NCBI GenBank assembly: GCA_033977065.1
Contig: JAXCHI010000003.1
Coordinates: forward strand, 640,001 to 704,000
Length of the DNA: 64,000 nucleotides
Reading direction: 5' to 3'
DNA from: Candidatus Algichlamydia australiensis
Lineage (GTDB): Bacteria > Chlamydiota > Chlamydiia > Chlamydiales > JAJFMI01
In this document: positions 1,023-59,189 of the stretch, piece by piece
How positions within the stretch are numbered: the first letter of the stretch is position 1
Layout of the letters: each line of letters starts with the position of its first letter
The notes under the pieces: model-generated
Databases searched by the model: none
What the model was told of the DNA's origin: nothing
The model's input: only the letters and a program-made list of their open reading frames with translations
Translations under genes and position numbers: made by a program

Positions 1023-1496
1023 ATGTTGGATAGAGAATTTGGAGATATTATGGAAGATGAGTTTAAGAAAATTTTGAAATTTTTTGATATGCCGATGGAA
1101 GAGAAGGCAGATAAACTCGATTCAGTTTTTGAAGAGACTTCCGTTTTTTTAGAGCGATTTAAGCATGTATTTGAGACAGGAACGCCTGAGGAAAAAAAGG
1201 CGATGATCGAAAAAGTACTTGAGCTGCAATCGCGGTTAAAGGGCGAAATGAAGCAACTAACAGAGGCTTCAGGGCTCACAGAAGAGCAAATTATGCAATT
1301 TGCGACAAACCCCAAAAATTTTAAAGAGGGGCAGTGGGACTCAATTGAATCGTCTCGAAAAAAGATTGAGGGACAGGCGAAAGATATCGCAAAAAATCTT
1401 CGCAAAGAGTTTGGTGGCAACAAGGATGAGGGCAGTGACGATGATGATAAGCCCCCATCAGCAGGTGGCGGCAAGAAGGGTTGGATTCCTGGCTAG
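1023..1496 (+). CDS. Hypothetical helical protein
   Basis: 157-aa ORF, K/E-rich; its TAG stop is the first bases of palindromic element A. Confidence 0.7.
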   Translation: MLDREFGDIMEDEFKKILKFFDMPMEEKADKLDSVFEETSVFLERFKHVFETGTPEEKKAMIEKVLELQSRLKGEMKQLTEASGLTEEQIMQFATNPKNFKEGQWDSIESSRKKIEGQAKDIAKNLRKEFGGNKDEGSDDDDKPPSAGGGKKGWIPG

Positions 1497-1660
1497 TACT
1501 TCGTAACAGAAATTTTTAGCATTATTTTTACGTCAAAGCCTCGGGATTGAACTATCGAAAATCACCTCGTATTTGATTAATACTAGGTGACTTGCGATAG
1601 CCCAATCGCGAGAGCTTTCACGTTAAAAAGAATAGTAAAAATTTCTGTTACAGAGTACTA
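1494..1660. mobile_element. Full-length palindromic MITE-like element, family A (167 bp)
   Basis: TAGTACTTCGTAACAGAAATTTTTA...TAAAAATTTCTGTTACAGAGTACTA; arms pair imperfectly to the centre (TCACCTCGTATT/AATACTAGGTGA); TA at both ends. Confidence 0.85.
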
Positions 1661-1881
1661 GTACTTTGTAACAGAAAAATTTTATTATCTAATTTAAAAA
1701 AACAGCCAATAGAGCGCATCGCGCGTTCATTCCCCACCCTCCACTTCGTTTCGGGTAGGGCCCCTTTCGCGTCGCTTGCGCGGCTGTTTTTTTTGTTTTG
1801 TAGAAAATTTTGTATGATCTAGACAGCGTCGTTAAATCCACGTGGTCACCTTATTTTGCACATTTGGGCTTCACTTTTACG
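1659..1881. repeat. Composite element A2: A-type end, GC-rich structured core and diverged B-type end
   Basis: Starts TAGTACTTTGTAACAG sharing the TA of element A; matches the reverse complement of about 35090-35446; 1820-1881 (TAGACAGCGTCGTTAAA...) resembles the family B left arm. Confidence 0.8.
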
Positions 1882-1883
1882 TT

Positions 1884-2595
1884 TTATAAGAGTTGGGGTT
1901 CTAGCAGGTTTTCCTGGGATAATTCATCGACAATAAGGTGAGTAGGAGTGTCGGGAAGATTTTTTAATTCTTTTTTTAGAAAGGTGGGAATAAGATGGAT
2001 TTTGTTTAATTGGTCTAAGTCAAACCATTTATACCTTAATGTAGTTTTCTCGTCTGAAAACTCTTCGGTTCCAATACCTTCCTTTTGAAAGTAGATAGGG
2101 GAATCCTTTTGAAGGTGTACTAGATAGTATAAAACAAGGTCATGATGGTTAATGTTTTTAGCAGAAAAGTGGTATAAGTCTTCTGTAAACCATAGCAGTC
2201 GATCAATAATAGGAACTTCACCAAGCTCTTCATAAATTTCTCTTTTTAAAGCTGTTTCAGAAGTTTCAAAAATTCCTGCTTTCCCTCCGGGAGTATACCA
2301 AAAATCAAAACGGTCTTCTTTAGAGAGTGTTTTCGAATGAACTTTCGTCGAGTTTTTGGATTATTTTGGCCGATTTTTGGACTCAATTTAAGAGGGGTAA
2401 TATCACCTTACGGATATGACCCTCTTAAATTGAGCCGAAAACTCGGCTCAAAAGAACCGAAAAATCGACTGAATTTTAATTCGAAGACACTCTCCTAACC
2501 AAAAGAATTTTATTCTCGTTAATAATAATTGACGCAACGCGATATCGAAAAGCACCATCTTTGCTTTTAATATGAATATCTCGAGGCTGCGACAT
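1884..2595 (-). pseudogene. Nudix hydrolase disrupted by palindromic element E
   Basis: Removing 2323-2497 (175 bp) gives 537 bp = 178 aa + stop: MSQPRDIHIKSKDGAFRYRVASIIINENKILLV|KEDRFDFWYTPGGKAGIFETSETALKREIYEELG, with an intact Gx5Ex7REUxEExG box. Confidence 0.9.
2321..2497. mobile_element. Full-length palindromic MITE-like element, family E (173 bp plus TA duplication)
   Basis: TA-GAGAGTGTTTTCGAAT...CTCAATTTAAGAGGG / CCCTCTTAAATTGAG...ATTCGAAGACACTCTCC-TA; TA duplication supported by ORF restoration. Confidence 0.92.
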
Positions 2596-2601
2596 TGAAT
2601 T

Positions 2602-3816
2602 TTAGCTTGCTTCTTCTTTTACAATTTCTGGATCAGCGTTTTCTGTTACACACTCTTTTGTGATGGTGATCTCTTTGATTGTAGGATCAGATGGTGTCTT
2701 GTACATCAAGTCAATGAGAAGACTTTCAACCATCATACGTAGAGCGCGCGCACCTGTACCTGCGTCTTTTGCTTTTTTTGCGATGGCAAAGAGGGCTTCA
2801 TCTGTAAAGTTTAGTTCTACATTATCCTCTTTAAAGAGAGATTTGTACTGGGAGATGATCGCATTTTTCGGTTTTGTAAGAATTTCAACGAGATCTTCAT
2901 GTGTAAGTTCTGCAAAGTGTGTAATGCTGTTGAAACGCCCGATAAATTCAGGGATTATTCCGAACTGGACAAGGTCAGAAGTCTCTACTTGTGAAAGAAG
3001 GTAGCTGCTCTCGTTGGGATCGAGATGTCGACTCTCTTCTAAGTCAAAGCCGATGACGCCTTTTCCCAGGCGTTTGGCAATGATTTTATCCAAGTTAACA
3101 AAAGCTCCACCCACGATAAATAGAATGTTTTCTGTATTGATTTTCAAATACTCTTGATTGGGGTGCTTGCGGCCTCCTTTTGGGGGGACATTGGCAACAG
3201 TTCCTTCAACAATTTTAAGAAGGGCTTGCTGCACGCCTTCACCAGAAACATCACGAGTGATAGAGACGTTAGAGGTTGTTTTGCGCAGTTTATCAATTTC
3301 ATCAATATAGATAATACCGTGTTCAGCCCAGCTCACATCGTATTCTGCATTTTGCAAAAGGCGGAGGATAATATTTTCGACATCTTCACCCACGTAGCCT
3401 GCTTCTGTAAGAGTCGTTGCATCAGCGATTGCAAAAGGAACATCCAAAATTTGCGCTAGTGTGCGTGCAATTAATGTCTTCCCTGAGCCGGTGGGTCCAA
3501 GGAGGAGCACGTTCGACTTTGAGTACTCGACTTCGCGGTTTTCTTGCATGGCGCGAATGCGTTTGTAGTGATTATAGACGGAGACAGAAATAGTGCGTTT
3601 TGCATCCTCTTGACCAATGATATACTTATCAAGTTGATCTTTGATCTCTTGTGGCTTGATTACCTTCAATTTATGCTTTGAAGGTTTTTTCATGACGATG
3701 TCCATACAAAGACGCACACATTTGTCACAAATATAGCAATTCGGTCCGGATATTAATTTTTCTACAATATTTTCTGCTCGTCCGCAAAAGGAGCAAGCGG
3801 GCTTTTGTTTGTTCAT
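2602..3816 (-). CDS. clpX: ATP-dependent Clp protease ATP-binding subunit ClpX
   Basis: CSFCG zinc finger, GPTGSGKT Walker [15 protein letters not shown]. Confidence 0.99.
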
Positions 3817-4451
3817 GGGGTAGTAGCTAATTCTACGGGTTCAACAACTTTATCGATAATTCCTAAAGGTCCATAATCGAGGGCTTCTTGCGGGTTCATA
3901 AAGAAATCGCGATCGGAGTCCTCTTGAACTTGCTCAACTGTTTTTCCAGTGTGAGTAGCAAGGATATTTGCGAGCATGGACTTTAATGTCAAAATTTCTT
4001 GAGCTTGTACGTGAATATCTGATGAGGTTCCGCCAACGCCTCCATGAGGTTGGTGGATCATAATACGAGAGTGGGGGAGAGCAAAGCGCTTTCCTTTTGT
4101 TCCAGCTGCAAGAAGGAGGGCGCCAAATGAGGCTGCCTGTCCAATGCAGTAAGTATTGATGTCGCAACCCAGGTAGCGCATTGTGTCGTAGATCGCAAGA
4201 CCTGCAGAGACGACTCCACCGGGAGAATTAATGTAAATATTCACATCTTTCTTGGCATCATCGGCGCGAAGGAAAATCAGCTGGGCAACAACGGCGTTGG
4301 CAACCTGATCGTTGATCTCTGTACCGATAAAAATGATGCGATCTTTTAGAAGACGCGAGTAGATGTCCATGGAACGCTCGCCTTGGCCTGTGTCCTCAAT
4401 AACGTAAGGGACTGAGTAGTAATTTTTTGGGCGATAGGGATCATTGCTCAT
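3813..4451 (-). CDS. clpP: ATP-dependent Clp protease proteolytic subunit
   Basis: [32 protein letters not shown]. Confidence 0.99.
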
Positions 4452-4501
4452 AGACTAAACCTCTTTTTCTTTTGCAGTATAGATACGATCATACAGAGGC
4501 G

Positions 4502-5776: not shown

Positions 5777-5798
5777 GGGATAAATTGAATGAAGGATA

Positions 5799-5870
5799 AG
5801 CGGGTGATGAGATTTGAACTCACGACCCTCACGTTGGCAACGTGATGCTCTACCACTGAGCTACACCCGC
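5799..5870 (-). tRNA. tRNA-Gly(GCC)
   Basis: Reverse complement GCGGGTGTAGCTCAGTGGTAGAGCATCACGTTGCCAACGTGAGGGTCGTGAGTTCAAATCTCATCACCCGC forms a cloverleaf. Confidence 0.97.
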
Positions 5871-5888
5871 AGTTGTTCGATAGATTTT

Positions 5889-5918
5889 ATGATAGCGTTA
5901 AGGGGGTGTAAAAGTCAA
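5889..5918 (-). promoter_or_regulatory. Sigma66-type promoter for tRNA-Gly (probably also tig-clpP-clpX)
   Basis: TTGACT-N18-TATCAT just upstream of the tRNA. Confidence 0.55.
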
Positions 5919-6015
5919 TGCAATTTTCAACCCTTTGCGCCTCTATAAAGTATTTTTTTTGTTTTTTTTCTGGTTTTTCCTTGCAGGTTGCGCTAACATT
6001 CGCTAAAAATAGTAA

Positions 6016-6340
6016 CCTGAGTTGTTAACCAATTTCTCCTGCAAAGAGAAAGGGTTTCGATGAGATGTTTCGTTTCAAATTAAAGGAGTGTTAGATAGCG
6101 TCGTCAAAAGCATACAACCATCTTATTTTTCATGTTTGGGCTCCATTTTTGTGCTCAAATGAAGCGGAATTTACAAATTCAGCTTCAATTTCCGCACAAA
6201 AATAAGCTGCAAACATGAAAAATAATCTGATTATAGCCTTTTGACGACGCTATCTAAATGATCATTTCTGAAATTTTGAACGAAATAGATCGCGAAAAAA
6301 CTCCTCCCAGAGTGGGGGGGGAAGGGGTAGCAACTTGAGT
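6016..6340. mobile_element. Palindromic element family C (about 162 bp) interrupted in its loop by a family B copy
   Basis: CCTGAGTTGTTAACCAATTTCTCCT...AAAGGAGTGT[B]AATGATCATTTCTGAA...TAGCAACTTGAG; aligns with the reverse complement of uninterrupted 39038-39194. Confidence 0.8.
6092..6256 (+). mobile_element. Palindromic MITE-like element family B, copy 1 (165 bp incl. both TA)
   Basis: TAGATAGCGTCGTCAAAAG...CTTTTGACGACGCTATCTA; near-identical to 13840-14004 (inverted) and 27128-27292. Confidence 0.95.
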
Positions 6341-13594: not shown

Positions 13595-14813
13595 TTGACT
13601 ACCATTTGCAGTCGTGAGAACTCTACACTTTACCCCTGTTTTATTCGAAATGGTCTCTTTAGAGATCCAAAAAAAGAGTATGGGCTTAATTTTGGAGATG
13701 TAGAAAAAGTAGAAAAAATTTGCACGCTTGGGCTCTTTGAGAAAGTCTTATATGGGGAGAAAACAGTTAAAAGTTTGCAAAGGAGAGTTTATTTCGACAA
13801 GAATCTTAGATTTGTTAATTTTAAAAACTTAGATATTTCTAGATAGTGTCGTCAAAAGGCTATAATCAGATTATTTTTCATGTTTGCAGCTTATTTTTGT
13901 GCGGAAATTGAAGCTGAATTTGTAAATTCCGCTTCATTTGAGCACAAAAATGGAGCCCAAACATGAAAAATAAGATGGTTGTATGCTTTTGACGACGCTA
14001 TCTAATTGTTGCACACATCATTACGAACCTGATCGTGAGATAGCTGAAACTTATCTCGAATTAGAAAAAGTTTTTGGAAAGTGGACCCTACCACTTGCGC
14101 GTTTACTGATTCAAGATACAGAAGTTCTCTCTAAGTGGGCGCCAATCCCAACCAAAATTCCCCTTGATAATAGAGAGATTGAATTTACCTGGTGCAAGGA
14201 AGAATTAGAAACTAGAGTAAAGAATGCATATAAAAACGAGGAAAGAGAGTTTTTTGTACAGATCATAAACTTCTGGAGTGAATTGGAGGGTCGAGAGTGG
14301 AATGAAGGGTTCTACTTTCACTGGATCTATATCGTCTATCGCATACGCACCATTTTGGAAAACAGTAAGGAAAATTGTGGTGAGGATTTTTGGATCTGCA
14401 TCCGTCACTTTGTCGACGGGGCGCAACTTTATGGTTGGTGGGATAAATTGCTTAATCTTGCAGAAGGAAGTGAGAAAGAAAAAGAGATTCAAAGAATTCC
14501 TTTTCAGGTGCGACAAATTTCAAAATTAAGACACGAAGACAAGCAAGCATTGCTGAGTCTTATGACGGAGGTTTTTTCTAATTCGGAATTGATAAGTGGG
14601 GTAGGAGATTGGGAATATTATAATGATTTTGAGGCATCTTCACTCCCGAATACTACAAACAAAAAGAAAGAGGGTAGAGCAAAAGTTCACCTTATAGCTG
14701 GTATTGCACTCATTACTTTTGGTATCATCGGGGGTCTATACTATTATGGAAAACTTGATCGACTTCTCCAATATACGAAAGATTTTAGTCGCAAAACTGC
14801 GCCACCACGGTGA
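13595..14813 (+). pseudogene. 351-aa hypothetical protein with C-terminal TM anchor, split by element B
   Basis: Excising 163 bp fuses ORF 13595-13846 and ORF 13983-14813 in frame (...NLDIS|NCCTHHYE...; 1056 bp); start codon uncertain. Confidence 0.85.
13840..14004 (-). mobile_element. Palindromic element family B, copy 2 (inverted)
   Basis: 165 bp, reverse complement of copies 1 and 3 with about 1 mismatch each; TA duplicated. Confidence 0.95.
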
Positions 14814-16383: not shown

Positions 16384-16517
16384 TGTCCGAATTATAACTA
16401 ATTCGGACAAAAATCTTCTAAGAACTGGCCGAAAACCCGTTAATTCGGACAAAAACAGGCCAAAAAATGTCCGAATTGTGATAATTCGGACAAAAATTAT
16501 CGAAAAGTGTCCGAATT
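16384..16517. repeat. Array of six TGTCCGAATT/AATTCGGACA sites
   Basis: Copies at 16384(+), 16400(-), 16442(-), 16468(+), 16483(-), 16508(+). Confidence 0.9.
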
Positions 16518-27127: not shown

Positions 27128-27292
27128 TAGATAGCGTCGTCAAAAGCATACAACCATCTTATTTTTCATGTTTGGGCTCCATCTTTGTGCTCAAATGAAG
27201 CGGAATTTACAAATTCAGCTTCAATTTCCGCACAAAAATAAGCTGCAAACATGAAAAATAATCTGATTATAGCCTTTTGACGACACTATCTA
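27128..27292 (+). mobile_element. Palindromic element family B, copy 3
   Basis: 165 bp, about 2 mismatches to copy 1; TA flanks. Confidence 0.95.
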
Positions 27293-27328: not shown

Positions 27329-27357
27329 TTGTCAAGAAGGATTTTCCTTAGTAGAAT
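27329..27357 (+). promoter_or_regulatory. Sigma66-type promoter for tRNA-Arg(TCT)
   Basis: TTGTCA-N17-TAGAAT. Confidence 0.65.
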
Positions 27358-27365: not shown

Positions 27366-27527
27366 AGGGGCATTGAATAACTGCTCTTTCAGGGAAGGGT
27401 TCAAAAATTGAGATGAAATTTGTTTTGGAGCACAGAGCTAACTTGATTAAAGTTAGCGAGTACGAAAAACAAACTTGAGCCAATTTTTGCATCCTTATCA
27501 GGAGGTCTGAGTTGTTCAGCGACTCCT
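27366..27527. repeat. Palindromic element family D (about 162 bp) in the tRNA-Arg leader
   Basis: AGGGGCATTGAATAACT...GCTAACTT/AAGTTAGC...AGTTGTTCAGCGACTCCT; related to 59091-59189. Confidence 0.82.
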
Positions 27528-27643: not shown

Positions 27644-30241
27644 ATGTACTTAGGCGAATACGCGTTTGAAAAAAAGTCTTTCCCAAATTTAGTAGATGTT
27701 TTTGCTGAGTTTAAGGGGCCGAAATTTGAAAAGCTCAATGAGCACATGCGGCGCTGTGCTGTTTCTCGCGCGCTTTGCCACTTGATTGAAGAGCAGGAAG
27801 AACCCTGCTTTTTGCTTCCCCATGTCATCGATTTCATTTCAAAGCTCCACGAGGAAAAAATTATTGGGTATTATACCTTCTCTAGTTTTGAACTCTGGTT
27901 GAATCAGTACTCTTCTTTGAGTGACGAAGAGAATTATCATGTGAGGGCAAAGATTGTAGGTGCGCGAGTACCCCGTGATGCTTATCAAGTTTACTTTCCT
28001 ATTGGTATGGGCAAGCGCTATGAAGGCTCCCATTTTGTCACGGCTCATAGCTCTCCCGATTTGGATACGACCGTTGCCTCTTTTTGGGGATGGGTCGATG
28101 CGTTTGGTGCAAGGGTTGGAAAGGGTTTGCATATTTGGAATGTTCCTGGCGGACCACCTGGAAATCAGATTGAAATTGGGATGCTTTTTTACGATTTGCT
28201 TGGCAAGGGAATTTTCTCTAACTTAGCCAAGGGTCGCTCGCGTCTAACGCTTTCAAGCTATGATTTAATGACCCAAGAGGGGCTAATTAAGAAATTGCCA
28301 CAGGAACCGGCACTCAGTCTTGACCACGAGAGAAATTTAAATGCGATTGTTTTGATCGATAAAGAGGGCTACTTTTTAGGGGATTGGCGCTATTTTGATG
28401 TGGAGGGTGTCCGTCAGGTTGTTACAGCTCTTGAAAATTGCTTGCGCTGGATCGAAAATGACATGCACTCGCGTATCATTACTTTTTTTGCCAAAAAGGA
28501 GTTAAAGAGAGAAGAGGTCCCGCCATTTGCAGAGTCCCTCATGTATGAGGAGATCAAGTCTTCTGAGCCGGGCCGCGATTTGACGCTCCGCCAGCAAAAA
28601 CTCTTGCAGCTCTACTTAGAAAAAGTTCTTCGTGTTGCTAGCGGTTTCAATTGCACATTCTTAGAGCTTGTTGATGCAATGGAGAGCGCTTCGATCGCAG
28701 ATTTCTCTAATTTCAAAAGGTATCTCAAGGAGCTAGAGACAAAGGGCTTTTTTGACTCTTCAGGCGCATTGATTGAAGATCGCCCCAAGCTCTTCTCGCA
28801 TATTGAAAAAATTATGAGCGCTCTTTCGGATGGGTTTCGCGAGATTCGTCTTTATGTTGAGCAATTGGAAATTGCGCTAAAAATTAAATCTAATGTTTTT
28901 GGTTACGCTCCGCAATATCTTGGTTACAGGGCAGATATTGAAGAGGTCAAAACAAAAATGGGCTCCTATCCTTATCTGACGGTAACATACCCAGATCCGT
29001 CTGGAAAAAAGATTCCTGTGGGGGTTGTTCACGCATCGAGTTTGCAAAAGCCAACTTTAGGGACTGTAACACTGCGCGATTTTTCAAACAGAGAAGAGAC
29101 TAAGGTACCCTCATTTTTAGAGGTGATCAGTGTCATCGACCATCACAAGAGCAACTTTTCAACTCAAGTACCTGCCACAATTATTGTAAGCGATGCGCAA
29201 TCGGCAAATGCACTTGTTGCTCAAGCAAGTTTTACAATTCATGATCGTTACTCCTCTTTTGGTTTTGATTCGAAAGCAGTTGATGCGCAAATTAACGAGT
29301 TACAGGGCAAAAAAGACCGAGAATCTCTACGCCTTCTGCAAAGGCTCTTACAACGTCAAGGCGTATCAGAAGAATATTATATCGCTAAAGATCGTCAGTT
29401 TATGGAGTATTTGCACTATCTCTTTGCGATTTTAGATGATACTGATCTTTTGACAAAACTCTCCTACCGCGATGTCTATACTGTTGCTTCTTTGGTCAAT
29501 CGTATGAAGTCGATTATCGAGGGCAAAGAGGTCGAGCTCATACACTTTGATGATATTCCTCAAGACCAAAAATTTGTGAAAAAGGCTGCAAAGCGTCTTC
29601 TGCAGTGTCACGATCTCCACTCTTTATATGCTAAAGTCTACGTGGCTCGCGAAAATGCTGTAGATGAGGAGATTGAAAAAGCTGCGAAGGGGGAAGAGAC
29701 GGGCTTTTATCTCGACACTAAGATTCAAAATAATTGCGTACGCGTGGGGCAGAGTAAACTTTTTCGCAAAAATTTGCCCTGTTTCAGCAAGCATGTTGAA
29801 GCCCTTCAAAAGCGCTGGTATGAGGAGAGTTTAGCTGCTTTTGAGAAAAAAGATGAACTGGATCTACATCTTCATATGATTTCTACGATTGCTTCTGCAG
29901 AGGAGCTTGTTAGTGGCAATGAAACAAGGTATGAGCATAAAGATGAGCTTTGGATTTTTATACCCAAAACAGATCTTGGTACAGAGCATTTGCGCCTCTT
30001 TCTAAGCGCTTTTCAAAATTCTCCCCAGATTGCGCATGCTGAGGTAGAAGGGGAGTTTGTGGGGGAAAACGCGGAAGAGCTTGCTACAATATTCAAAGAG
30101 AGTTTTCGCAATATTCCCATGAAAGTTGCAGAAAAGCCGCAAGGGCCTCCGATTGCAATTTTGCGTTATCCAGCAGGGACGATCAACTCACGCAAGAGCA
30201 TGATCACGCCCTACCTTCCTACTCATCACATCGCTAACTAA
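27644..30241 (+). CDS. Large DHH-superfamily protein (family II pyrophosphatase PpaC-like motifs)
   Basis: AHSSPDLDTTVAS, VIDHH, AILDDT resemble PpaC motifs; 865 aa. Confidence 0.6.
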   Translation: MYLGEYAFEKKSFPNLVDVFAEFKGPKFEKLNEHMRRCAVSRALCHLIEEQEEPCFLLPHVIDFISKLHEEKIIGYYTFSSFELWLNQYSSLSDEENYHVRAKIVGARVPRDAYQVYFPIGMGKRYEGSHFVTAHSSPDLDTTVASFWGWVDAFGARVGKGLHIWNVPGGPPGNQIEIGMLFYDLLGKGIFSNLAKGRSRLTLSSYDLMTQEGLIKKLPQEPALSLDHERNLNAIVLIDKEGYFLGDWRYFDVEGVRQVVTALENCLRWIENDMHSRIITFFAKKELKREEVPPFAESLMYEEIKSSEPGRDLTLRQQKLLQLYLEKVLRVASGFNCTFLELVDAMESASIADFSNFKRYLKELETKGFFDSSGALIEDRPKLFSHIEKIMSALSDGFREIRLYVEQLEIALKIKSNVFGYAPQYLGYRADIEEVKTKMGSYPYLTVTYPDPSGKKIPVGVVHASSLQKPTLGTVTLRDFSNREETKVPSFLEVISVIDHHKSNFSTQVPATIIVSDAQSANALVAQASFTIHDRYSSFGFDSKAVDAQINELQGKKDRESLRLLQRLLQRQGVSEEYYIAKDRQFMEYLHYLFAILDDTDLLTKLSYRDVYTVASLVNRMKSIIEGKEVELIHFDDIPQDQKFVKKAAKRLLQCHDLHSLYAKVYVARENAVDEEIEKAAKGEETGFYLDTKIQNNCVRVGQSKLFRKNLPCFSKHVEALQKRWYEESLAAFEKKDELDLHLHMISTIASAEELVSGNETRYEHKDELWIFIPKTDLGTEHLRLFLSAFQNSPQIAHAEVEGEFVGENAEELATIFKESFRNIPMKVAEKPQGPPIAILRYPAGTINSRKSMITPYLPTHHIAN

Positions 30242-30518
30242 TTGTTTCTGTTGAAGCGGCAGCCTCTTCAGATGGAGTCTCTTCTTCTTTTTCAAGAATT
30301 TCTAAATTGACTCGTACACCAGCGCGTGAAGCGACAGACATCAGAAGGGTGCGAATCGCATTGATTGTCTTCCCTTTCTTTCCAATGATTTTTCCAATGT
30401 CTGCTTTTTCAACGCTGAGCTCGATGATCTTGGTTTGAGAGCCACCAATTTCATTGATTTTGACACTGTCTGGATTGTCGACTAAATTTTTAATGATGTA
30501 TTCAACAAATTCTTTCAT
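30234..30518 (-). CDS. khpA: KH-domain RNA-binding protein (KhpA/YlqC)
   Basis: LVDNPD, DIGKIIGKKGKTINAIRTL. Confidence 0.9.
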   Translation of the reverse strand: MKEFVEYIIKNLVDNPDSVKINEIGGSQTKIIELSVEKADIGKIIGKKGKTINAIRTLLMSVASRAGVRVNLEILEKEEETPSEEAAASTETIS

Positions 30519-33830: not shown

Positions 33831-33870
33831 TCTGTTGATAGTCAGTAAGTAATGCTTGGTATCTTCTTTT

Positions 33871-33974
33871 ATATGTTGGATTTTTTCCTGTTTTCCAACA
33901 TATCAAATGTGATATGTTGACTGAGTCAACATATTCTGATAATATGTTGAAAAATATGAAAAAATTCAACATAT
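33871..33974. promoter_or_regulatory. Six-site ATATGTTG/CAACATAT operator-like array upstream of fic
   Basis: Sites at 33871, 33896, 33912, 33927, 33942, 33967; three inverted pairs with spacers 17, 7, 17; last site overlaps the ATG. Confidence 0.8.
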
Positions 33975-35064
33975 GAAAAAGTTTGATCCTGACGCACCGT
34001 ACAACGAACTCCCTCTACTTCCTCCAAGATACTCCCTCGAAACGCCTGGTGTTTTAAAAGCTTGCATCGAAGCAAACAAGGAGTTGGCAAAACTAAAGAT
34101 TGCAGAACGCCTTATTCCAAATCAAACCGTTTTAATTAACTGTATACCTCTTTTAGAGTCTCAAGCAAGTTCTGCAATTGAAAATATTGTAACAACGACT
34201 GATGAGCTCTTTGAGTATGCTCAAAGTGTGCTAACAACAACACCTTCGGCTACGAAAGAGACTCTGCAATACAGGCAGGCATTAAACCTTGGATATAAAT
34301 TACTACAGAAAAGACCTTTGAGCACAGCTATTGTCTGTGAAATTTGTTCGACAATAAGACAAGTTGATGTGGATATTAGGGATTTGCCAGGCACAGTTCT
34401 TATGAATGATTTTTCTGGTGAAAAGATTTACACTCCTCCTGAAGGGGAAGGTAGATTAAGAAACCTCTTAGATAACTGGCTAGATTATCTTCATCAAGAT
34501 GATGATGGCATAGACCCGCTTATAAAACTTGCTGTTCAGCATTACCAATTTGAAGCGATACACCCCTTTTCTGATGGCAATGGTCGCACGGGACGCATTG
34601 TCAATTTGTTGTATTTGATACAGAGAGGCTTGTTAGATACCCCGATTCTCTACTTAAGCGGATATATTATTAAGAATAGGGCAGAGTATTACAAGCGTTT
34701 GTTAGATGTTACAGCTAGAGAAGCTTGGGAGGAGTGGATTCTTTACTTTCTAGACGCAATTTTCGAAACATCTAAGTGGACACTATCTAAAATTTTAGCA
34801 ATTCAAAAGCTATTAGATGAGTCCTGCGTGTTAATAAAGTTAAAAGCGCCTACAATTTATAGTAAAGAGCTTGTTGAACTGCTTTTTACACAGCCTTATA
34901 TCCGGATTCAAAACTTAGTAGAATCCGAGGGAATTGGTCGAGATACAGCATCTAAGCGCTTAAAAATACTTTCCGGAATAGGCTTTTTGCAAGAAGTAAA
35001 AAGAGGGAGGGACAGGCTGTTCATTAACCACAGATTTCTCAATCTTCTCAAACAAAAAGAATAG
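33973..35064 (+). CDS. Fic-family protein (class II) with C-terminal HTH-like region
   Basis: SSAIENI inhibitory helix and HPFSDGNGRTGR catalytic motif. Confidence 0.96.
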   Translation: MKKFDPDAPYNELPLLPPRYSLETPGVLKACIEANKELAKLKIAERLIPNQTVLINCIPLLESQASSAIENIVTTTDELFEYAQSVLTTTPSATKETLQYRQALNLGYKLLQKRPLSTAIVCEICSTIRQVDVDIRDLPGTVLMNDFSGEKIYTPPEGEGRLRNLLDNWLDYLHQDDDGIDPLIKLAVQHYQFEAIHPFSDGNGRTGRIVNLLYLIQRGLLDTPILYLSGYIIKNRAEYYKRLLDVTAREAWEEWILYFLDAIFETSKWTLSKILAIQKLLDESCVLIKLKAPTIYSKELVELLFTQPYIRIQNLVESEGIGRDTASKRLKILSGIGFLQEVKRGRDRLFINHRFLNLLKQKE

Positions 35065-35460
35065 CATTATTTTTACGTCAAAGCTCTCGCATAAAAATAG
35101 ATCCCAAACGTAAAAACAGGGTGACCAAAAGGATTTAACGACACTGTATAGAACATGCAAAGTTTTCTGCAAAACAAAAAAAACAGCCGCGCAAGCGACG
35201 TGAAAGGGGCCCTACCCAAAACGAAGTGGAGGGTGGGGAATGAACGCGCGATGCGCTCGATGGCTTCAGATTGGCTTTGAAAAATTGCGGTGCAGGAGGA
35301 AGAAGTAGTGCTTTGCACGGTTTTCCGACGAAACGCAATTTGGCATGCCAAGATGAAGCTCAAAGGGCAGCGGGGATTTGCCCGACTGTCTCTATTGGCT
35401 GTTTTTTTTTAAATTAAACACTAAGATTTTCTGTTACGGAGTACTAGTACTCTGTAACAG
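35062..35460. repeat. Composite element A2, long inverted copy, ending in a head-to-head A-end junction
   Basis: Reverse complement of 1659-1881 plus 134 extra bp (35259-35392); starts with an A-arm fragment TAGCATTATTTTTACGTCAAAGC; ends CTGTTACGGAGTACTAGTACTCTGTAACAG. Confidence 0.85.
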
Positions 35461-38258: not shown

Positions 38259-38396
38259 ATAAGAACTATGCTAAGGAGATACGAAACAATTTATTTGCCG
38301 ATTCCAATAACTATACCTAGTTATTTGTGGTCTCCAAAAACTGCCTTTTAGCATTTTCTGTTCGACCTACCGGCAAAACACTTGCTCAAATATTCC

Positions 38397-39037: not shown

Positions 39038-39194
39038 CCCAAGTTGTCATCCACTTCCCCCTCTGGAGAGGTCCTTTTCGTGATCTTCTGGGTTTTGCTC
39101 TTCAGAAATGTTTAAAAACACTCCTTTCGAATCAAAGCCAAGAACCTCATCGAAAATCCCTCTCTCCATAGGAGAAATTGTTTTACACCTTAGG
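39038..39194. mobile_element. Palindromic element family C, uninterrupted copy in rpsD leader
   Basis: CCCAAGTTG...TTCAGAAATGTTT/AAACACTCCTTT...CTCATCGAAA...AGGAGAAATTG...CCTTAGG; homologous to 6016-6340 minus B. Confidence 0.8.
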
Positions 39195-39290
39195 CGTTTA
39201 ATTTGTTACCATCCATCATAGAACAAGCACATTTTTTCCACAATAGAGAACTTTTCGTAGATTCAAATAATTTTTAAGTCTTTTTGAAAA

Positions 39291-46699: not shown

Positions 46700-46708
46700 G
46701 AAGACAGT

Positions 46709-50555: not shown

Positions 50556-53500
50556 TTAATATAATATATTTTCTATGCAAGATTTGAAGATGAAGTACAA
50601 TACATAATCCCCTACCCACTCTTTAGAGATGGTATTGACTTTCTTAAGGGGAGGGGAGAACTTAATCCCCTCAAGCATGCCAACAGCGTTTAGTATCCAT
50701 AATACACTAGCTGTGGCTTTTAGGGCCGTGACAGTTATGTTTTGCACTTTTTCACTAAGTGTAGAGGCACTGTCGTTTCTCTCGTCAATTTCATCTTTCA
50801 AAGATTCGATCTCTCTAGGAAGAGCAGTATAATCACCGTACTCATAGCTATCAAAGGTTTTATCGAGGTAGCTTGTAAGAGGTGCTTTTTCATTTCGAGC
50901 CTTTTCAAAGACTCTCTTTCTCTCTTCAGGTTTTTTCGAATTTGGGAGATATTTTTTGATCTCCTCACTCTCAGGTAAGTAGCGATCAAGATAGGCTATT
51001 TTTTCAAGGAGGGTCTCTTCGCTAGAATTACCGGCATTCAATAACTCAACAACTTCGGCTTTTATTGTTGTTGGAAGAAGTTTATGAAGAGCTTGTCTTA
51101 GCGCAGTTCGTTTTTTGCTTTTTTGTAATTTTTTCTCCATAAACTTTTCTTGGTCTGCCCAAGTGGAAGAGTTTGGAAAATAGTTTTTAAGCTCTTTGTT
51201 TTCAGGGTAATATTTTTGAAGCTCTGAAAGCTTTACCATTAAATCAAAGCGTTTTTCTTTCTTTTTTTTGTCACACTTGATCTCTTCATATAGTCCAACC
51301 TCTTCATGTAAATTATGCACAAGAGAAAGGGGAAGCTGTGCAATTTTCTTCAATCTCTCTTTTTTAAGTTCATCTGTACTTTTTTCTTTCTTATCAACAT
51401 GCCCACCACCAGCTTTTGAGATCTCATCGGCAAATTTGCTCTTTTCGGTTTCCAACTCCATAAGAAGAATTTCCATCTTTTTGCGGATACCTTTTGGATC
51501 GCTATCGGTTGTATTTTTGCTACAATCAAACGGGAGGGTCTCTTGGAGAGGGTTAAAAGTTTTGATAACGCTTTTTGCACCACTAGCTACTAGATTTTTG
51601 TAGTAGCTTAGGTGGTAAAATTCATCACTCGTTGTTTTAGGAACAAAGGTTTCAGGGAGTATCTTTTTTAAATCTTCCAATATTTTGGTTTTTGCGGATT
51701 GAATTTCCTTAGCGGCTTCGCTACCATCTTTGTTTGTCTCTGTATTTTTGATAAGGTTAAGTAAATCAGATTCTTTGCTGGGGTAAAAAGTAGCGAGTTT
51801 TTTAATATTTTTTAGGACCTCTTCTGCTTCAACTTGAGTTAGTTCTCCACTTAGTAATTTATAAGTTCTTTCCGTAACAGGGGTTTGCAAAAGTATCTTT
51901 CTTAAATCTTCCGATAAATTTCTATCTGTAGATTGAATTGTGCTAGTAGCTTTGCGCACCTCTTTGTCTGTTTTTGCATTTGAGATGAGGCTAAGTAAGT
52001 GGTCTGCTTTATCAGGATAAAAGATGGCAAGTCGCTGAATATTTTTTACCACTTCTTTTGCTTCGGGTTTCTTGGGCGTTCCCTGCAATAAACTATAAGT
52101 CCTTTCAGCGATTGCAATCGGAAGCTCTTTTTTTAGTTTTTCAATATCACTAGCTTTTTGATGAAGGTCTTTTGCCATGACAAGGTTATGCGAAAGTATC
52201 TTTCTTAAATCTTCCCTTGTTGTTTCTGTTGAAGATTGAATTGTCTTAGCAGCTTCGAGCAGCTCTTCACCTGTTTTTGCGTTTGATATGAGGTAAAGTA
52301 AGTGGCCTACTTTACCTGGATAAAAGATGTTAAGTTTCTGAATATTTTTTATGACCTCTTTTGCTTCAGTTTGATTTAGTTCTGCACCTAGTAATTTATA
52401 AGTTCTTTCTATAAAAGGGGGGTGCAAAAGTACCTTTCTTAAAACTTCCCTTGTTGTTTCTGTTGAAGATTGAATTGTCTTAGCAGCTTCGAGCACCTCT
52501 TTGTCTGTTTTTGCGTTTGAGATGAGGTTAAGCAAAGGATGTGCTTTATCTGGATAAAAGATGGCAAGTTTCTGAATATTTTTTACGACCTCTTTTGCTT
52601 CAGCTTGATTTAGTTCTGCACTTAGTAATTTATAAGTTCTTTCTATAAAAGGGGGTTGCAAAAGTATCTTTCTTAGAACTTCCCTTGTTGTTTCTGTTGA
52701 AGATTGAATTGTCTTAGCAGCTTCGAGCACCTCTTTGTCTGTTTTTGCGTTTGAGATGAGGTTAAGCATAAGCAAAGGATGTGCTTTATCCGAATATAAG
52801 GTGGCAAGTTTCTGAATATTTTTTACGACCTCTTCTGCTTTGAGTAGATTGAGCTTTCCCCGCAATAAGCTACAAGTGCTTTCCGCGATTCCAATTGGCG
52901 ATTTTTTCTTTAATTCTTCAACAAGGTTTTTCTCAATATTTTTTCGATTCTGCGCAATTGCGTCTGTTAAGCAGGTCACTTTGCGGTATTTTTCCCACGA
53001 GGAGAATTGTTCGATTTCTGCTTCGGAATAGAAGTCATTCAAATTGACCAACTCGTAATTACTTTTTTGGGGCGGGCGCATGAACGCTGACATAATTTCT
53101 TGAAGCGGATTTTTCGTAAGATTTGAAAGAGATATGTTTGCGAGTGCAGAGAGAGGTGAGGATGAGGAACCCACAGCTTCGTTAAATATATGATTAGAGC
53201 TGATGTATAAAAAAGCACGCGCTAAGTTACCAATATGCGGAAAGGCAGCCTGAAATAAGAGCGCTGATGCAAAAATAGAGATTACGACGAGTGTGATTTT
53301 TACAGCCGTGGCTTTATAAGAAATAAAGTTGTCTTCAAGCTCTTTGGCGGCATTTTTAATTTCCTCTTTGTAATTAACTAAAATCGTGTTTCGTAACTTT
53401 AGCTTTTCTAAAAAGGCTTCTGTTCGTGCTAGATCGTTTTCTCTCTCGTGCGCCTCGACTGTATCTTCAAGAGTATTCAAGAATTTGGGTTGTTGATAGT

Positions 53501-53888
53501 AAGAAAAAAGCGTTTCGCCCATTACAAACGCTGTAATTTTTTCGATAGTTGTGCGGTCTTCTTTTGGCTTTTCAGAAGTTTTTTCCTTTACAAATGCCAA
53601 AGAAGTGTTGCTGTCATTACCTGAAATAGCCGCAATCTTTTTACCGATTCCGAAGTGAGAAATAGTCAGGAAGAAGAGTGCGTTTGCACCTAAGTAGATA
53701 TTGATCCTTCTTAAATCTTTAAAAGGGTAGTAGTCGATCTTTTTAAAGAAAGTTTGATAAGCGAAAAAAGAGAGAGCAGCTAGGGAGGTGCGCCAAAGAG
53801 TATCTCCACTAAAAATTACTTCAGACAAGTGATAGGAGGTTGAGGGGTCTTTTTCGCTAAAAGTAATTCTCAAAATGCTGTTTTCCAT
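50556..53888 (-). CDS. Large membrane protein with five ~78-aa helical repeats, paralog 1 of tandem family
   Basis: HFGIGKKI...TSLAF, LFQAAF, YELVNLNDFY...SWEK; internal repeats. Confidence 0.85.
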   Translation of the reverse strand: MENSILRITFSEKDPSTSYHLSEVIFSGDTLWRTSLAALSFFAYQTFFKKIDYYPFKDLRRINIYLGANALFFLTISHFGIGKKIAAISGNDSNTSLAFVKEKTSEKPKEDRTTIEKITAFVMGETLFSYYQQPKFLNTLEDTVEAHERENDLARTEAFLEKLKLRNTILVNYKEEIKNAAKELEDNFISYKATAVKITLVVISIFASALLFQAAFPHIGNLARAFLYISSNHIFNEAVGSSSSPLSALANISLSNLTKNPLQEIMSAFMRPPQKSNYELVNLNDFYSEAEIEQFSSWEKYRKVTCLTDAIAQNRKNIEKNLVEELKKKSPIGIAESTCSLLRGKLNLLKAEEVVKNIQKLATLYSDKAHPLLMLNLISNAKTDKEVLEAAKTIQSSTETTREVLRKILLQPPFIERTYKLLSAELNQAEAKEVVKNIQKLAIFYPDKAHPLLNLISNAKTDKEVLEAAKTIQSSTETTREVLRKVLLHPPFIERTYKLLGAELNQTEAKEVIKNIQKLNIFYPGKVGHLLYLISNAKTGEELLEAAKTIQSSTETTREDLRKILSHNLVMAKDLHQKASDIEKLKKELPIAIAERTYSLLQGTPKKPEAKEVVKNIQRLAIFYPDKADHLLSLISNAKTDKEVRKATSTIQSTDRNLSEDLRKILLQTPVTERTYKLLSGELTQVEAEEVLKNIKKLATFYPSKESDLLNLIKNTETNKDGSEAAKEIQSAKTKILEDLKKILPETFVPKTTSDEFYHLSYYKNLVASGAKSVIKTFNPLQETLPFDCSKNTTDSDPKGIRKKMEILLMELETEKSKFADEISKAGGGHVDKKEKSTDELKKERLKKIAQLPLSLVHNLHEEVGLYEEIKCDKKKKEKRFDLMVKLSELQKYYPENKELKNYFPNSSTWADQEKFMEKKLQKSKKRTALRQALHKLLPTTIKAEVVELLNAGNSSEETLLEKIAYLDRYLPESEEIKKYLPNSKKPEERKRVFEKARNEKAPLTSYLDKTFDSYEYGDYTALPREIESLKDEIDERNDSASTLSEKVQNITVTALKATASVLWILNAVGMLEGIKFSPPLKKVNTISKEWVGDYVLYFIFKSCIENILY
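51655..52890 (-). repeat. Intragenic tandem repeat, five units of about 234 bp
   Basis: AGTTTCTGAATATTTTTT recurs at 52333, 52567, 52807 (periods 234, 240); unit ERTYKLL...EVVKNIQKL...LISNAKT...TIQS...LRKIL. Confidence 0.92.
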
Positions 53889-53924
53889 TGCTTCCTCTAT
53901 CAGTGAGCAAGCAATTATCGCATT

Positions 53925-56309: not shown

Positions 56310-56478
56310 GAGGTATAATGATACTTTGTTTTGATTTTAGGTTGCAAGTAAGAGTTATAGGAGAAATTATTTGGCTCCATCTCGCTGTGCCAAATCGAAA
56401 ATCAGCCGCCACGCCGCTTCGCGTACTAAAAGTTTATATTTGAACCCGTTGCGCCGCTTTGCGCATCAACTAAAGTTT

Positions 56479-57207
56479 TTAGAGGGTCTCGAAGGGTTTT
56501 AGGTATTTTTCGTATAACCGAGGATAGGTCTTTTCTACTTTCTCGTCGTAGGCAATGAGGCGGTCTCGCGGTACTTGGTTTGAAAAATGTATGAATTTTC
56601 CACCTGTTCGTCCTCCTCTTTTATTGTGGCAATAGGCGCGGTGCTCTTCAAAGTTTTCTATAAAGTTGTCCCAGCGACTAAAGTCTTCTCCCAAAAAGTG
56701 AAGGGCTCTTTCAAATACTTCTTCAGGATTTTGAATGAGATCTTTGTAGTAGATAAGAAGGCGATTTTTAGGGTTCCATAGATCAAAGGCTGCGATGTTT
56801 CTGTAGTAGGTTGTGGCTTCGGGAAGGCCGTTGTTTTTTACAAGGCTATGAAAAAGATTTTCAAATTTTTCAGGTCCAAAACGGCCTATAAGATTTTCTT
56901 TATTATTCCGAAGAAGAAAGATGAGTTTATCTCTTTGAGGATTGAGTTTTTTTAAATTAATGCAGTGGTGTTGGTGGAAGAAAGGAGGTTTTTCTGAAGC
57001 GGCATTTTCAGGATCTTTTAATTGTGTCACCCATTTGGGTAGGACATTTTTCTCCCATGTGCGTCCTGTAAGCTGGGTAAGGCTGTAGACAAAGAAGCAG
57101 GTTCCCGAGCGAAAGTAGCTCAAGACTGCAACTCGTGGCTCGTCTTTTTCTGTGGCAAAGCCGAGATTTGTTAATGCAAAGGCAAGAAAAAAAATTCGAA
57201 TGAACAT
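56479..57207 (-). CDS. Sulfotransferase-fold protein with signal peptide
   Basis: SYFRSGT (5'-PSB-like), IFLLRN, YKDLIQNPEEVFERALHFLG. Confidence 0.7.
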   Translation of the reverse strand: MFIRIFFLAFALTNLGFATEKDEPRVAVLSYFRSGTCFFVYSLTQLTGRTWEKNVLPKWVTQLKDPENAASEKPPFFHQHHCINLKKLNPQRDKLIFLLRNNKENLIGRFGPEKFENLFHSLVKNNGLPEATTYYRNIAAFDLWNPKNRLLIYYKDLIQNPEEVFERALHFLGEDFSRWDNFIENFEEHRAYCHNKRGGRTGGKFIHFSNQVPRDRLIAYDEKVEKTYPRLYEKYLKPFETL

Positions 57208-57320
57208 CTTACGTTCTAGGATACTTGGGGCACGTTTTATCTCAAGTAAAATCTTTTTTCTTTTCCTTAAATTTTAAATTTGGCATGCTCCAGTCTTGAT
57301 GATTTTTTAATGGAGACCAT

Positions 57321-58046
57321 ATGAAGTCTTTTTTAGCATTAGTATTGGCAATGCCTCTTCTTTTTTGCTCTCAGAAAGGGGTTGAGCTGAAGTTTCACGA
57401 GGGCGGGAATCATAAGTATCAATTTTCTGGTTACATTCCTGCGACAACCTTTTCTAGCGAGCCAGGTAAAAGAGTGAAGGTTGAGGGAAAGATAGATCTT
57501 CAGATTGATGAGGTCTTAGATGATGGTAGCGCGAATCTTACAGCTACTCTTTCTAATTTTAAAGTTGATACCGAGACAGAGTTAGGCGATCAGCTTGTCA
57601 ATACCGTGCTTGAATCGATGGTAACTGGGGGGTCAGCCCTCTGGACTTTATCGCCCAAAGGAGAGCTGCTTGAGTTTACTTCAGACTCTTTCTTTTTCTC
57701 TGAATATGCGAACCAAATTATAGCTCTCGGGCTCTTCTCTCCGATGTTGCGCGGTGCTGTTGAACAAGGGCACTCTTCCCTAGCACATAATAAAAGTTTG
57801 AGTCAGTTTGAAATTGAATATGCGGCAGAAGAGGTCTCGGATAACGGAATGCTCATCTCTTTTCATATCAACTCTTCGCGGATTATTGAGGGAAAAGCGT
57901 CTGAGGTAGCAGCATTTCTGCGTGCGAACTTCGATCTTTCAAATGGGTGGGCCCGCGAAACTTATTTTGATATCCACTGCGAGCAGATGGGTAAGAAAAA
58001 TTGGGAGAGAAACCACTATACATTCATAATTAACAAGTGCGATTGA
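57321..58046 (+). CDS. Exported hypothetical protein
   Basis: GGAG RBS, signal peptide, beta-rich. Confidence 0.75.
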   Translation: MKSFLALVLAMPLLFCSQKGVELKFHEGGNHKYQFSGYIPATTFSSEPGKRVKVEGKIDLQIDEVLDDGSANLTATLSNFKVDTETELGDQLVNTVLESMVTGGSALWTLSPKGELLEFTSDSFFFSEYANQIIALGLFSPMLRGAVEQGHSSLAHNKSLSQFEIEYAAEEVSDNGMLISFHINSSRIIEGKASEVAAFLRANFDLSNGWARETYFDIHCEQMGKKNWERNHYTFIINKCD

Positions 58047-58072
58047 CATTTCCTGCATCTATAGAGTATAGT
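58043..58072 (+). promoter_or_regulatory. Sigma66-type promoter for tRNA-Leu
   Basis: TTGACA-N18-TATAGT. Confidence 0.65.
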
Positions 58073-58074
58073 GG

Positions 58075-58180
58075 CACAAGTTACTACTCTCTTCATAAGA
58101 GAAATTGGGCAGCAACTTGAGTTCTAGTACTCAGAAAGTGTAGGTGAGTTTTTGGATTATATTTTAATTTGAAGACTCTC
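58075..58180. repeat. Relics of palindromic families C and E (and an A-like end)
   Basis: 58075-58121 CAAGTTACTA...GAGAAATTGGGCAGCAACTTGAG = C ends; TAGTACTC; GAGTTTTTGGATTAT and ATTTTAATTTGAAGACTCTC = E pieces. Confidence 0.6.
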
Positions 58181-58190
58181 TTTTATTCTT

Positions 58191-58276
58191 GCGGAAGTGG
58201 CGGAATTGGCAGACGCGCTACCTTGAGGTGGTAGTGGGAATAACTTCCCTTGGGGGTTCAAGTCCCCCCTTTCGCA
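58191..58276 (+). tRNA. tRNA-Leu(GAG)
   Basis: GCGGAAGTGGCGGAATTGGCAGACGCGCTACCTTGAGGTGGTAG...GGTTCAAGTCCCCCCTTTCGCA, long variable arm. Confidence 0.96.
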
Positions 58277-58490
58277 ATTTTTTTGGGACGGGGTCGGCTC
58301 CCCCTTTATTCCAAGGGCCGCATTTCAAAACTCTTTTAGCTGTAAGCCAGCTTCCTTTCCAAAATCCCCACTCGCGGTAGGCGGCAATGCTGTAGGCCGA
58401 GCAAGAAGGGGTAAAGCGGCAACAGCTTCCCATCAAGGGGCTAATGAAGAGCTGATAGCCGCGAATGAAAAAAATCATGACCCATTTCAT
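58218..58490 (-). CDS. yidD: Membrane protein insertion efficiency factor
   Basis: [32 protein letters not shown]. Confidence 0.93.
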
Positions 58491-59056
58491 TCGTGAGAGA
58501 TCGCCCCCCAGAAGCGCGTTTCAATTTCTTTTTCCATGTCGTGCGTTATCACTATCTCATCAAGCTCTAAGAATTTTCGCACATCTGCCAATTTTTGCGC
58601 CTCAGTAAAAAATCTGCTTGGCATGTAGAGACCTTCATGTTTTAAAACTTTTAGTAAAAAGCTCATTTTTATTTGAGAGACTTCAGAGGTTGTTTTGAGC
58701 TCTTCTAGATAACAAATCAATAGTTGATAGAGAAGGGGAGAGGGTTTGCTGGGAAGTTGGGAACGCAGGAGGGTCTTGAGCCAGTATCCGGCACAGTTGA
58801 GCTTATCATAGTTGCTGCGTATTTCTGTGTAGAGATCAAGTGGGGTTACATCTTTAAGTGTATAGAGTTCGGAGGTTTTTCGCGTAAGTAGAAAGTTGCA
58901 GCGGCAAAGGGCAGAGAGGTAGCCACGTTTTTTTAATGAGATGTAACTGCTTGTGGAAAGCAGACCGCCCTCTTTGGAAAAAAGAGTAAGAATATTTTTA
59001 CGCTCGCCATAGGCGGTGGTGCGTAAAACGATTGCTTCTGTCGAGAGCTCTTCCAT
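58487..59056 (-). CDS. recO: DNA repair protein RecO (short)
   Basis: [12 protein letters not shown]...[10 protein letters not shown]. Confidence 0.85.
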
Positions 59057-59090
59057 TGATACTTAAGAAACTGTATACTTAATGATCTAC

Positions 59091-59189
59091 AGGAACCACT
59101 GAACAAGTGCTCTTTTTGAAAAGGACTTAAAAATTTAGGCCAACTTTTTTTAAGCCCTTTCAGAAATCGTGACTTATTCAGTGTTTCCT
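59091..59189. repeat. Palindromic element family D, internally deleted copy in tRNA-Arg leader
   Basis: AGGAACCACTGAACAAGT...ACTTATTCAGTGTTTCCT; both arms align to 27366-27527. Confidence 0.8.

Follow-up and report, generated by a model that had tools for sequence, protein, structure and literature searches.

The DNA considered here is a 64,000-nucleotide stretch of the genome of Candidatus Algichlamydia australiensis (contig JAXCHI010000003.1, positions 640,001–704,000), hereafter the window. The source genome, an assembly of 1.80 Mb in seven contigs that is 93.4% complete, is labeled G000 and the window is G000:C3:640001–704000. Positions without a contig prefix are window positions, G001 is a congener of G000, other G numbers are compared genomes, and L numbers are inspected loci. 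[quoted passage not shown] They are short and transposase-free (157–171 bp between duplications, below the size of a transposase gene), they carry terminal inverted repeats (TIRs) and target-site duplications, and they are multicopy with both filled and empty sites. No match to the transposase Pfam families tested across G000 overlaps any copy. Ends are shared with autonomous insertion sequences (ISs) in families A (IS630) and B (IS5) and, as judged by eye, in family E.

All 11 starts listed in a first-pass annotation of the window are element ends, but its list of copies was incomplete, as relics of families G and F had been missed; folding of the F relic is not above shuffles. The element reported as a C copy at 6016 is C-derived but is half of one C copy, divided by the B element at 6092 with duplication of a TA. 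The two A2 starts are also element ends, but A2, a composite of 408 bp bounded by A ends, forms no rod (rod fraction 0.0–0.13), and the remnant at 1659 contains a B-related half (1820–1879). Several copies supply a stop codon because their targets contain TAA or TAG. The TAG of the A element is the stop codon of an open reading frame (ORF) at 1023–1496, which in G001 has a TAA stop and no element, and the TAG of the A2 remnant at 35062 ends a SoFic-like Fic-family ORF (33973–35064). The D element at 27366 sits between a sigma70-like promoter (27329–27357) and tRNA-Arg (27533).

Table 1. Elements and element cores in the window (R2 and R3 are the core models described in the text).
Feature	Position	Strand	Remarks
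Family A MITE	1494–1660	none	161 bp between CTAG repeats; IS630-type ends; TATT/AATA class II core
Class II apical core within A	1541–1612	−	external-only model R3, 71 bits, E 3e-14
A2 composite, truncated and internally deleted	1659–1882	none	shares TA with A; not a rod
Family E MITE	2321–2497	none	TAA/TTA flanks; IS5-family-type ends; class II core
Class II apical core within E	2370–2445	+	R3, 39 bits, E 1e-6
Family C copy, first half	6016–6091	+	alignment to intact C copy
Family B MITE	6092–6256	− (better-folding strand)	IS5-family ends; inserted at TA in apex of C copy
Second half of B-split C copy	6257–6340	+	C-family match
Family B MITE	13840–14004	+	99% to other B copies; weak central R2 match
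Family B MITE	27128–27292	−	B-family match
Family D MITE	27366–27526	+	class I GA-loop core; G001 site empty
Class I apical core in D, GGA-N4-GNA-stem8-loop-stem8-GA-N4-GA	27409–27483	+	external-only R2, 62 bits, E 2e-13
A2 composite without left end	35062–35446	none	orphan A end next, 35445–35460
Family G relic behind rpsD	38280–38396	−	class I core; absent in G001; missed in first pass
Family C MITE in rpsD 5' leader	39038–39196	−	site empty in G001
Family F relic	56352–56479	none	missed in first pass
Composite relic in tRNA-Leu leader	58075–58189	none	centrally deleted C plus E-like end; G001 site empty
Centrally deleted D copy, 99-bp rod	59091–59189	+	upstream of tRNA-Arg 59193; congener site ambiguous

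Iterated nhmmer searches of G000 returned near-full copies of ten families (A 18, A2 16, B 37, C 16, D 21, E 1, F 18, G 18, H 18, I 11), with fragments besides. These ~170 near-full copies make up 2.1% of G000 DNA and, with the empty sites in relatives, bear out the expectation that the families are multicopy. Contigs C1 and C5 hold no copies of the MITE families; C1 (87 kb, lower in GC, and tRNA-free) is possibly a plasmid or island. Median pairwise identity within families is 0.99 for B, 0.98 for H, 0.95 for A, and 0.91 for I, and 0.62–0.72 for C, D, G, and F. The description of B and E as young fits B, but E is mostly centrally deleted (85–172 bp) and is thus not clearly young. Between their duplications A and B measure 161 bp, D and G 161–162 bp, C 157–158 bp, and I 171 bp. 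In 60 stretches picked around model hits in four other genomes, 97 of the 111 rods were 150–185 bp long.

The flanks carry family-specific duplications. Among the 30 of 37 B copies that were pattern-matched, TA is present on the left in all 30 and on the right in 29, and CTAG lies on both sides of 17 of 19 A matches. E has a 3-bp flank (TAA/TTA, TWA), such that the initial account of TA flanks in A, B, and E applies to B and, within CTAG, to A, but not to E. Perfect 9-bp repeats flank seven of ten I copies, and C has 8–9-bp repeats that are often decayed. D-type elements in other genomes have direct 4-mers (TTAA-like) in 32 of 54 flank pairs; the 27 non-palindromic pairs gave 11 direct versus no inverted 4-mers, both strands being counted. 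A 3-bp TWA flank considered for D is superseded by this 4-bp repeat, and no target duplication is evident for F.

Insertions are nested with duplications in three combinations: B in C, I in B, and a 1,108-bp DDE IS in B. Two ISs of this last type, with split ORFs, are present (G000:C2:397647–398754 and C3:388891–389998), one of them within a B copy with a 9-bp duplication; we take the type to be IS903-like. Five sites (the rpsD leader, the G relic behind rpsD, the tRNA-Leu leader, the stop codon at 1494, and the tRNA-Arg leader) lack the element in G001, and the 6016 site is empty also in G002. That the rpsD, tRNA-Leu, and tRNA-Arg leader sites are empty in the congener speaks against the proposal that C and D might be domesticated. 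The converse also occurs, with a G001 rod between orthologues around window 30230–30280, where the window has none. The sites of B 13840 and D 59091 gave no clean alignment to the congener. By crude ORF calls, none of 174 copies lies inside a long ORF. Excision at contig joints was considered and rejected, as the joints reflect other copies and no excision was seen; the read-depth peaks there derive from a run that may be the source of the DNA and are not independent evidence. The sequencing runs that contain this DNA carry the label dinoflagellate metagenome, and no RNA run was among those listed.

End-to-end folding was observed in the window for A, E, the three B copies, C 39038, D 27366, and the shortened D 59091, with rod fractions of 0.70–0.87 on the better strand and fold z scores of −5.4 to −18 against dinucleotide shuffles. 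The controls, 150 of 349 element-free intergenic windows, have a median rod fraction of 0.05 and a maximum of 0.65. Genome-wide, median end-to-end pairing is 0.64–0.87 in A, B, C, D, E, G, H, and I, 0.43–0.56 in F, and 0.12–0.13 in A2. The earlier picture of intact copies as single imperfect hairpins of ~157–177 bp is therefore right for A, B, C, D, and E (157–171 bp intact) and wrong for A2. An independent de novo palindrome scan found 191 rods, 86 of 160–169 bp and 23 of 170–179 bp; on contig C2 there were 48 palindromic rods in the real sequence versus none after shuffling. The elements match no catalogued RNA family above gathering score: an Rfam scan of the window returned tRNAs only, and a scan of 12 loci returned, over elements, only sub-threshold hairpin matches.

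The proposal that these elements are non-autonomous and mobilized in trans is supported by comparison of their ends, which makes it specific: A would depend on IS630, B on the IS5 family, and E, by eye, on an IS5-like element. The terminal 16 bp of B match without a difference the left end of an IS5-family element that is resident but broken, at C2:415817 (DUF4096 + DDE_Tnp_1; NF033580). The B end, present in 20 of 301 genomes, bounds 841–853-bp two-ORF IS5-family elements (G136, G132, G118, G183, and G148) as well as 163–167-bp rods (G227, G098, G118, G300, and G161). A search of 60 relatives gave no full-length B. The A end occurs at 28 metagenome loci; it bounds complete IS630 elements at L388 (1,256 bp, 381 aa, NF033545 213 bits) and L383 (1,225 bp), and also 167–169-bp rods with three different cores. 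In G339 the E end lies, as judged by eye, before an IS5-like N terminus where a contig ends, and it bounds 163–170-bp rods in G290, G340, and G326.

Within G000, the Pfam families for IS630, IS200/Y1 (PF01797), ISL2-type, and IS701 (PF13546) gave no matches. The report of no transposase in the window agrees with this for the five Pfam families tested genome-wide, the window ORFs not all having been scanned. Three other partners were rejected. IS701-type ends have a YACT end motif and a 4-bp repeat (PMC2266710); the motif partly fits A, but full elements with the A end encode IS630 transposases and PF13546 was not found. An intact IS5-family element on C1 (G000:C1:79605–81172, L004; 416 aa, NF033578) has ends that occur nowhere else in G000. 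A REP/REPIN-RAYT or IS200/IS605 system is contradicted by the failure to find PF01797 (Y1, HUH) in G000 and by the presence of target duplications.

When B and five B-ended rods were compared with six IS bodies, 35 of 36 scores fell within the shuffle range, and three mutually unlike interiors carry the B end (B itself, the G227 rod, and the G098-type rods). Judged by sequence comparison, the interiors of B-ended rods are not IS-derived, and the homology to an IS body that marks an internal-deletion derivative was not found in them.

Instead, two cores recur, which we followed with three models: R1, the family D model; R2, a class I core model built from 43 cores outside G000's genus; and R3, a class II core model (31-pair hairpin) built from nine outside copies. 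R1 found full-length rods in 13 of 100 relatives (28 candidates scored per genome), with TTAA-, TA-, and CTAG-type ends and one common apex, GGA-N4-GNA-8 bp stem-loop-stem-GA-N4-GA. R2 matched 30 of 151 phylum genomes; in G000 it gave 44 matches (150 of 440 candidates scored), comprising D, G, and six differently ended singles, and in the window it detected D and the G relic (24 bits). It also matched all three B centers on the expected strand, at a level that is suggestive only (14 bits, E 0.4). The class I GA-loop core is clear in D and only suggestive in B and C. A GA-loop motif is present on the better-folding strand in 20 of 50 representatives, among them C, H, and four B-ended rods; no representative has it on the reverse strand. 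Because the strand was picked by energy, this result is partly circular. Across ten families of the order the asymmetric GGA/GA and GNA/GA loops are kept while neighboring stems change. By eye, there is a likeness to 5S loop E, kink-turns, bulge-helix-bulge (BHB) motifs, and parvoviral GA/GAA bubbles, which was not used as evidence. Searched over one genome per species (185,579 species), the class I pattern gave 49 loci in nine records, seven of them titled Simkaniaceae, Rhabdochlamydiaceae, Parachlamydiales, Chlamydiales, or Neptunochlamydia, with an "uncultured bacterium" and a "Verrucomicrobia" record making up the rest. The same elements are present in genomes from the order to which G000 belongs, and these findings lend indirect support to its chlamydial label. 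Viral contigs gave no matches to the pattern.

The class II core, GATCGYAA...TARTATT-loop-AATAY, is found by R3 in A and E. The R3 count of 40 of 151 phylum genomes is an upper-leaning figure because a 31-pair model may match any near-perfect hairpin; of 25 loci inspected, 19 passed the core regex and the apex was recognized by eye in the other six. Neither core was found in the 27 genomes searched from the order's 1.0–1.3 Mb family. Both have a GATCG(T/A)A-like word 14–20 bp from the apex, which may reflect a distant common origin or a shared binding site.

Ends and cores are combined in several ways. The A/IS630 end is joined to a class II core in the window and at L376 (which adjoins an IS630 end), to a class I core at L389 (which agrees with the L388 IS end at 40 of its first 41 bp), and to a third core at L375/L395, and an A-like core is found with a TATACC end in G078 and with other ends in G001. 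To judge from these alignments, each of the two cores carries several different ends. A division into five unrelated families is not supported: A and E have a common core, the D core recurs in many elements whose ends differ, and B and C may group with D.

Paired positions change together. In family D, 104 double-change cells were counted versus 35 after shuffling (0 of 500 shuffles; 34 of 65 pairs), by shuffles that ignore the relatedness of copies. Covariation in G, C, H, and F is like that in D; B hardly varies. The alignment of 43 class I cores from outside the genus gave 131 double-change cells versus 40 shuffled (0 of 500), with slid controls at or below 23. On the core strand, single changes giving G-U exceed those giving A-C (154 versus 116 distinct types, p 0.024), with the reverse in A and B. 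Copies with a mirrored arm, in which one arm now repeats its partner in mirror form (L133, L174, and L305), and arms extended into the 3' ends of tRNA-Leu, tRNA-Met, and tmRNA indicate that arm-to-arm copying occurs. Such copying would offer a possible route for end capture, yet it is also a source of covariation without selection. The rods with extended arms are single ones lying directly behind the 3' ends of tmRNA, tRNA-Met, and tRNA-Leu (G000:C2:206802–206961, C2:236833–237000, and C3:566180–566351, respectively); in each the far arm is complementary to the last 9–17 bases of the RNA gene, and a 9–10-bp direct repeat follows the tmRNA and tRNA-Leu rods. Another single-copy rod, of 146 bp (G000:C2:417748–417893), matches neither core.

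The elements also tend to be oriented with respect to replication. In 102 of 153 G000 loci, counted after tandem merging, the better-folding strand is the C-rich strand, which by GC skew is the leading-strand template (p 5e-5). By family the counts are A 12/15, C 13/15, H 14/18, F 14/18, D 14/21, G 11/18, B 18/37, and I 6/11; B and I, like a TA family in G013, are unbiased. The same placement was seen at 45 of 50 loci in G301 (61 of 70 matches entered after tandem neighbors were dropped, with 11 near skew switches excluded) and at 19 of 24 in G066 (27 listed matches entered, three excluded). Loss from the lagging-strand template, as argued for attC (PMC5371416), or a transposase preference (PMC3971601) could explain this bias.

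Long stem-loop MITEs, IS-matched ends, filled and empty sites, and compensatory change in bcr1 have already been described (PMC3184786, PMC3733652), and whole-length pairing alone is not new because MITEs classically form long stem-loops (PMC3184786). The bacterial MITEs compared were Correia/NEMIS, ERIC, RUP, Nezha (130–170 bp), and YPAL/RU-2 (~168 bp) (PMC3184786, PMC3733652). Like these, the chlamydial elements are non-coding, under 200 bp, and endowed with IS-shared TIRs, target duplications, long stable stem-loops, and filled and empty sites; unlike them, they form ten same-length families in one 1.8-Mb genome. They further place the ends of unrelated IS families on two conserved cores across the phylum, a mixing that does not appear in the parts of those MITE descriptions compared (PMC3184786, PMC3733652). 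The bcr1 element of the Bacillus cereus group (~155 bp; PMC3184786) is similar in length, mobile, and kept in structure by compensatory changes, but it is one family that forms a cruciform of two stem-loops with 5-bp direct repeats, whereas the chlamydial elements are single rods with several end types. IS630 (NF033545) and IS5-family elements (NF033580 type, DUF4096 + DDE_Tnp_1) have ends and target duplications identical to those of A and B, yet the MITEs lack a transposase and the B-ended interiors are unrelated to the IS body. The Rickettsia palindromic elements (105–146 bp; PMC3733652, PMC3184786), which the first-pass annotation named as the closest analogue, are likewise several palindromic repeat families in an intracellular bacterium; the analogy is not supported, as no in-frame insertion was seen in this genome (0 of 174 copies on the crude ORF calls) and IS-type ends and duplications are present. 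The attC sites (PMC5371416) are recombined within arrays by a tyrosine integrase, and with DDE-type ends and duplications present here the analogy extends to orientation only. A search of the open literature, with most subscription journals outside it, found no description of these chlamydial elements or of the core-by-end mixing, and the available part of an IS survey in Rhabdochlamydia (PMC9723776) has no mention of "MITE" or "palindrom." Relative to known MITEs, what is new is the shared cores, mixed ends, fixed length, and replichore bias.

We consider it likely that the elements consist of exchangeable IS ends on a conserved hairpin core, that they are moved in trans by DDE transposases, and that the fold is selected for the element's own success. 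They would then be non-autonomous DDE-type miniature transposons with an outer and an inner module. The outer module, the IS terminal repeats, would choose the trans-acting transposase and the duplicated target: IS630 for A (TA within CTAG), a two-ORF IS5-family element for B (TA within YTAR), and an IS5-like element for E (TWA). The inner module would be one of two ancient chlamydial hairpin cores that did not derive from ISs, and a new family would arise when a core gains another pair of IS ends. The most likely route would be template switching, with the hairpin as template, in which an end next to one arm is copied onto the opposite arm. Selection on the element's spread or tolerability, rather than a site-specific host function, would keep the ~160-bp rod and the core loops. 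More tentatively, the cores may be long-lived selfish units, structured single-strand modules (RNA or single-stranded DNA, probably bound by a host factor) that have lasted across Chlamydiota by recurrently capturing the ends of resident ISs, one parasite lineage thus being moved by unrelated transposases in an orientation set by the replication fork.

Several results count against the proposal of exchangeable ends on a selected core. No capture event has been caught with both parent states. The covariation shuffles disregard kinship, template switching by itself yields double changes (PMC5941160), and on the core strand G-U changes are only modestly in excess. The class I match in B is weak, although strand and center are right in three of three copies, and R2 misses A, C, E, H, and I among the candidates scored in G000. 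No IS partner was found for the C ends in 251 genomes (two matched, both outside matches being 152-bp elements with paired ends) or for the D ends in 201 genomes (five matched; 30 loci inspected). IS630 (PF13358) was not found in the 93.4%-complete assembly, which leaves the mover of A missing from it, and the resident IS of B type is broken; no mover is therefore at hand for the A and B copies, which are 95–99% identical.

A rather unlikely alternative is that selection acts on the folded RNA to the benefit of the host. The rod would hide a 160-nt insertion in leaders and 3' regions, by protection against Rho or as a structure compatible with RNase III or RNase P, and old C and D copies would be partly domesticated regulators. 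MITE effects on mRNA stability are known (PMC3184786), several copies stand in tRNA and rpsD leaders, and the strands differ in folding energy by 8–21 kcal/mol with RNA parameters versus 1–7 with DNA parameters. In post hoc counts, where an old D, G, or C copy lies no more than 40 nt from a gene start, its core strand is the sense strand in 13 cases versus 2 (p 0.007), and young A, B, H, and A2 copies near genes lean the opposite way (15 versus 32). Overall, however, there is no link to gene direction (48 same, 46 opposite), and host-gene orientation was rejected as the cause of the strand asymmetry. Moreover, orientation tracks replichores while G000 genes are split 800:757 by strand (~51:49), and three leader sites are empty in the congener.

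A quite improbable alternative dispenses with selection on the core: two ancestral MITEs would have been maintained as palindromes by arm-to-arm template switching, which would also produce the "compensatory" changes, and the bias would be each transposase's replication-linked preference. Template switching does correct imperfect inverted repeats (PMC5941160), mirrored-arm copies exist, family-specific IS orientation bias is documented (PMC3971601), and the lack of bias in B, I, and the G013 family fits. Yet template switching erases mismatches, and the asymmetric loops persist across the order; length stays at ~160 bp despite unrelated ends, and all five biased lineages lean in the same direction (sign test ~0.06). 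We give very little credence to independent origins, with each family arising from its own IS by internal deletion or one-end mirroring and converging on 160-bp rods. The sharing of the B end by three unrelated interiors, the third core with the A end, and the little clear link of F, H, and I to either core would be expected under this scheme, but interiors are unlike IS bodies and, from genome to genome, one core sequence is met with different ends; independent origin is already disfavored for A, E, and D.

The usual view of bacterial MITEs is that they are ISs that have shrunk and whose interior is arbitrary. In the present elements the interior is conserved, the IS ends appear exchangeable, and length is held at ~160 bp, and both the origin of MITE interiors and the reason for long rods become testable with small synthetic elements. 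Reduced chlamydial genomes can hold ~2% unannotated mobile DNA, placed in the leaders of tRNA and ribosomal-protein genes and at stop codons.

Other repeats were noted. A GC-rich multi-hairpin repeat without TIRs (window 35160–35400 and family F, e.g., G000:C3:92980–93130) is a component of A2; it lies behind stop codons, mostly antisense (13 versus 4), and its center is, in G001, the insertion site of A-like and class I rods. Beside an IS5 remnant on C2 (L003:3–1175) is a gene for a 390-aa membrane protein that by eye is sterol reductase-like. Within a 1,110-aa ORF (50556–53888), coding tandem repeats of 234 bp (78 aa) span window 51635–52921. An intergenic gap at 16399–16516 contains three 35-nt direct repeats spaced by 41–42 bp, and similar AT-rich short-repeat palindromes occur elsewhere, for example at window 33867–33978.

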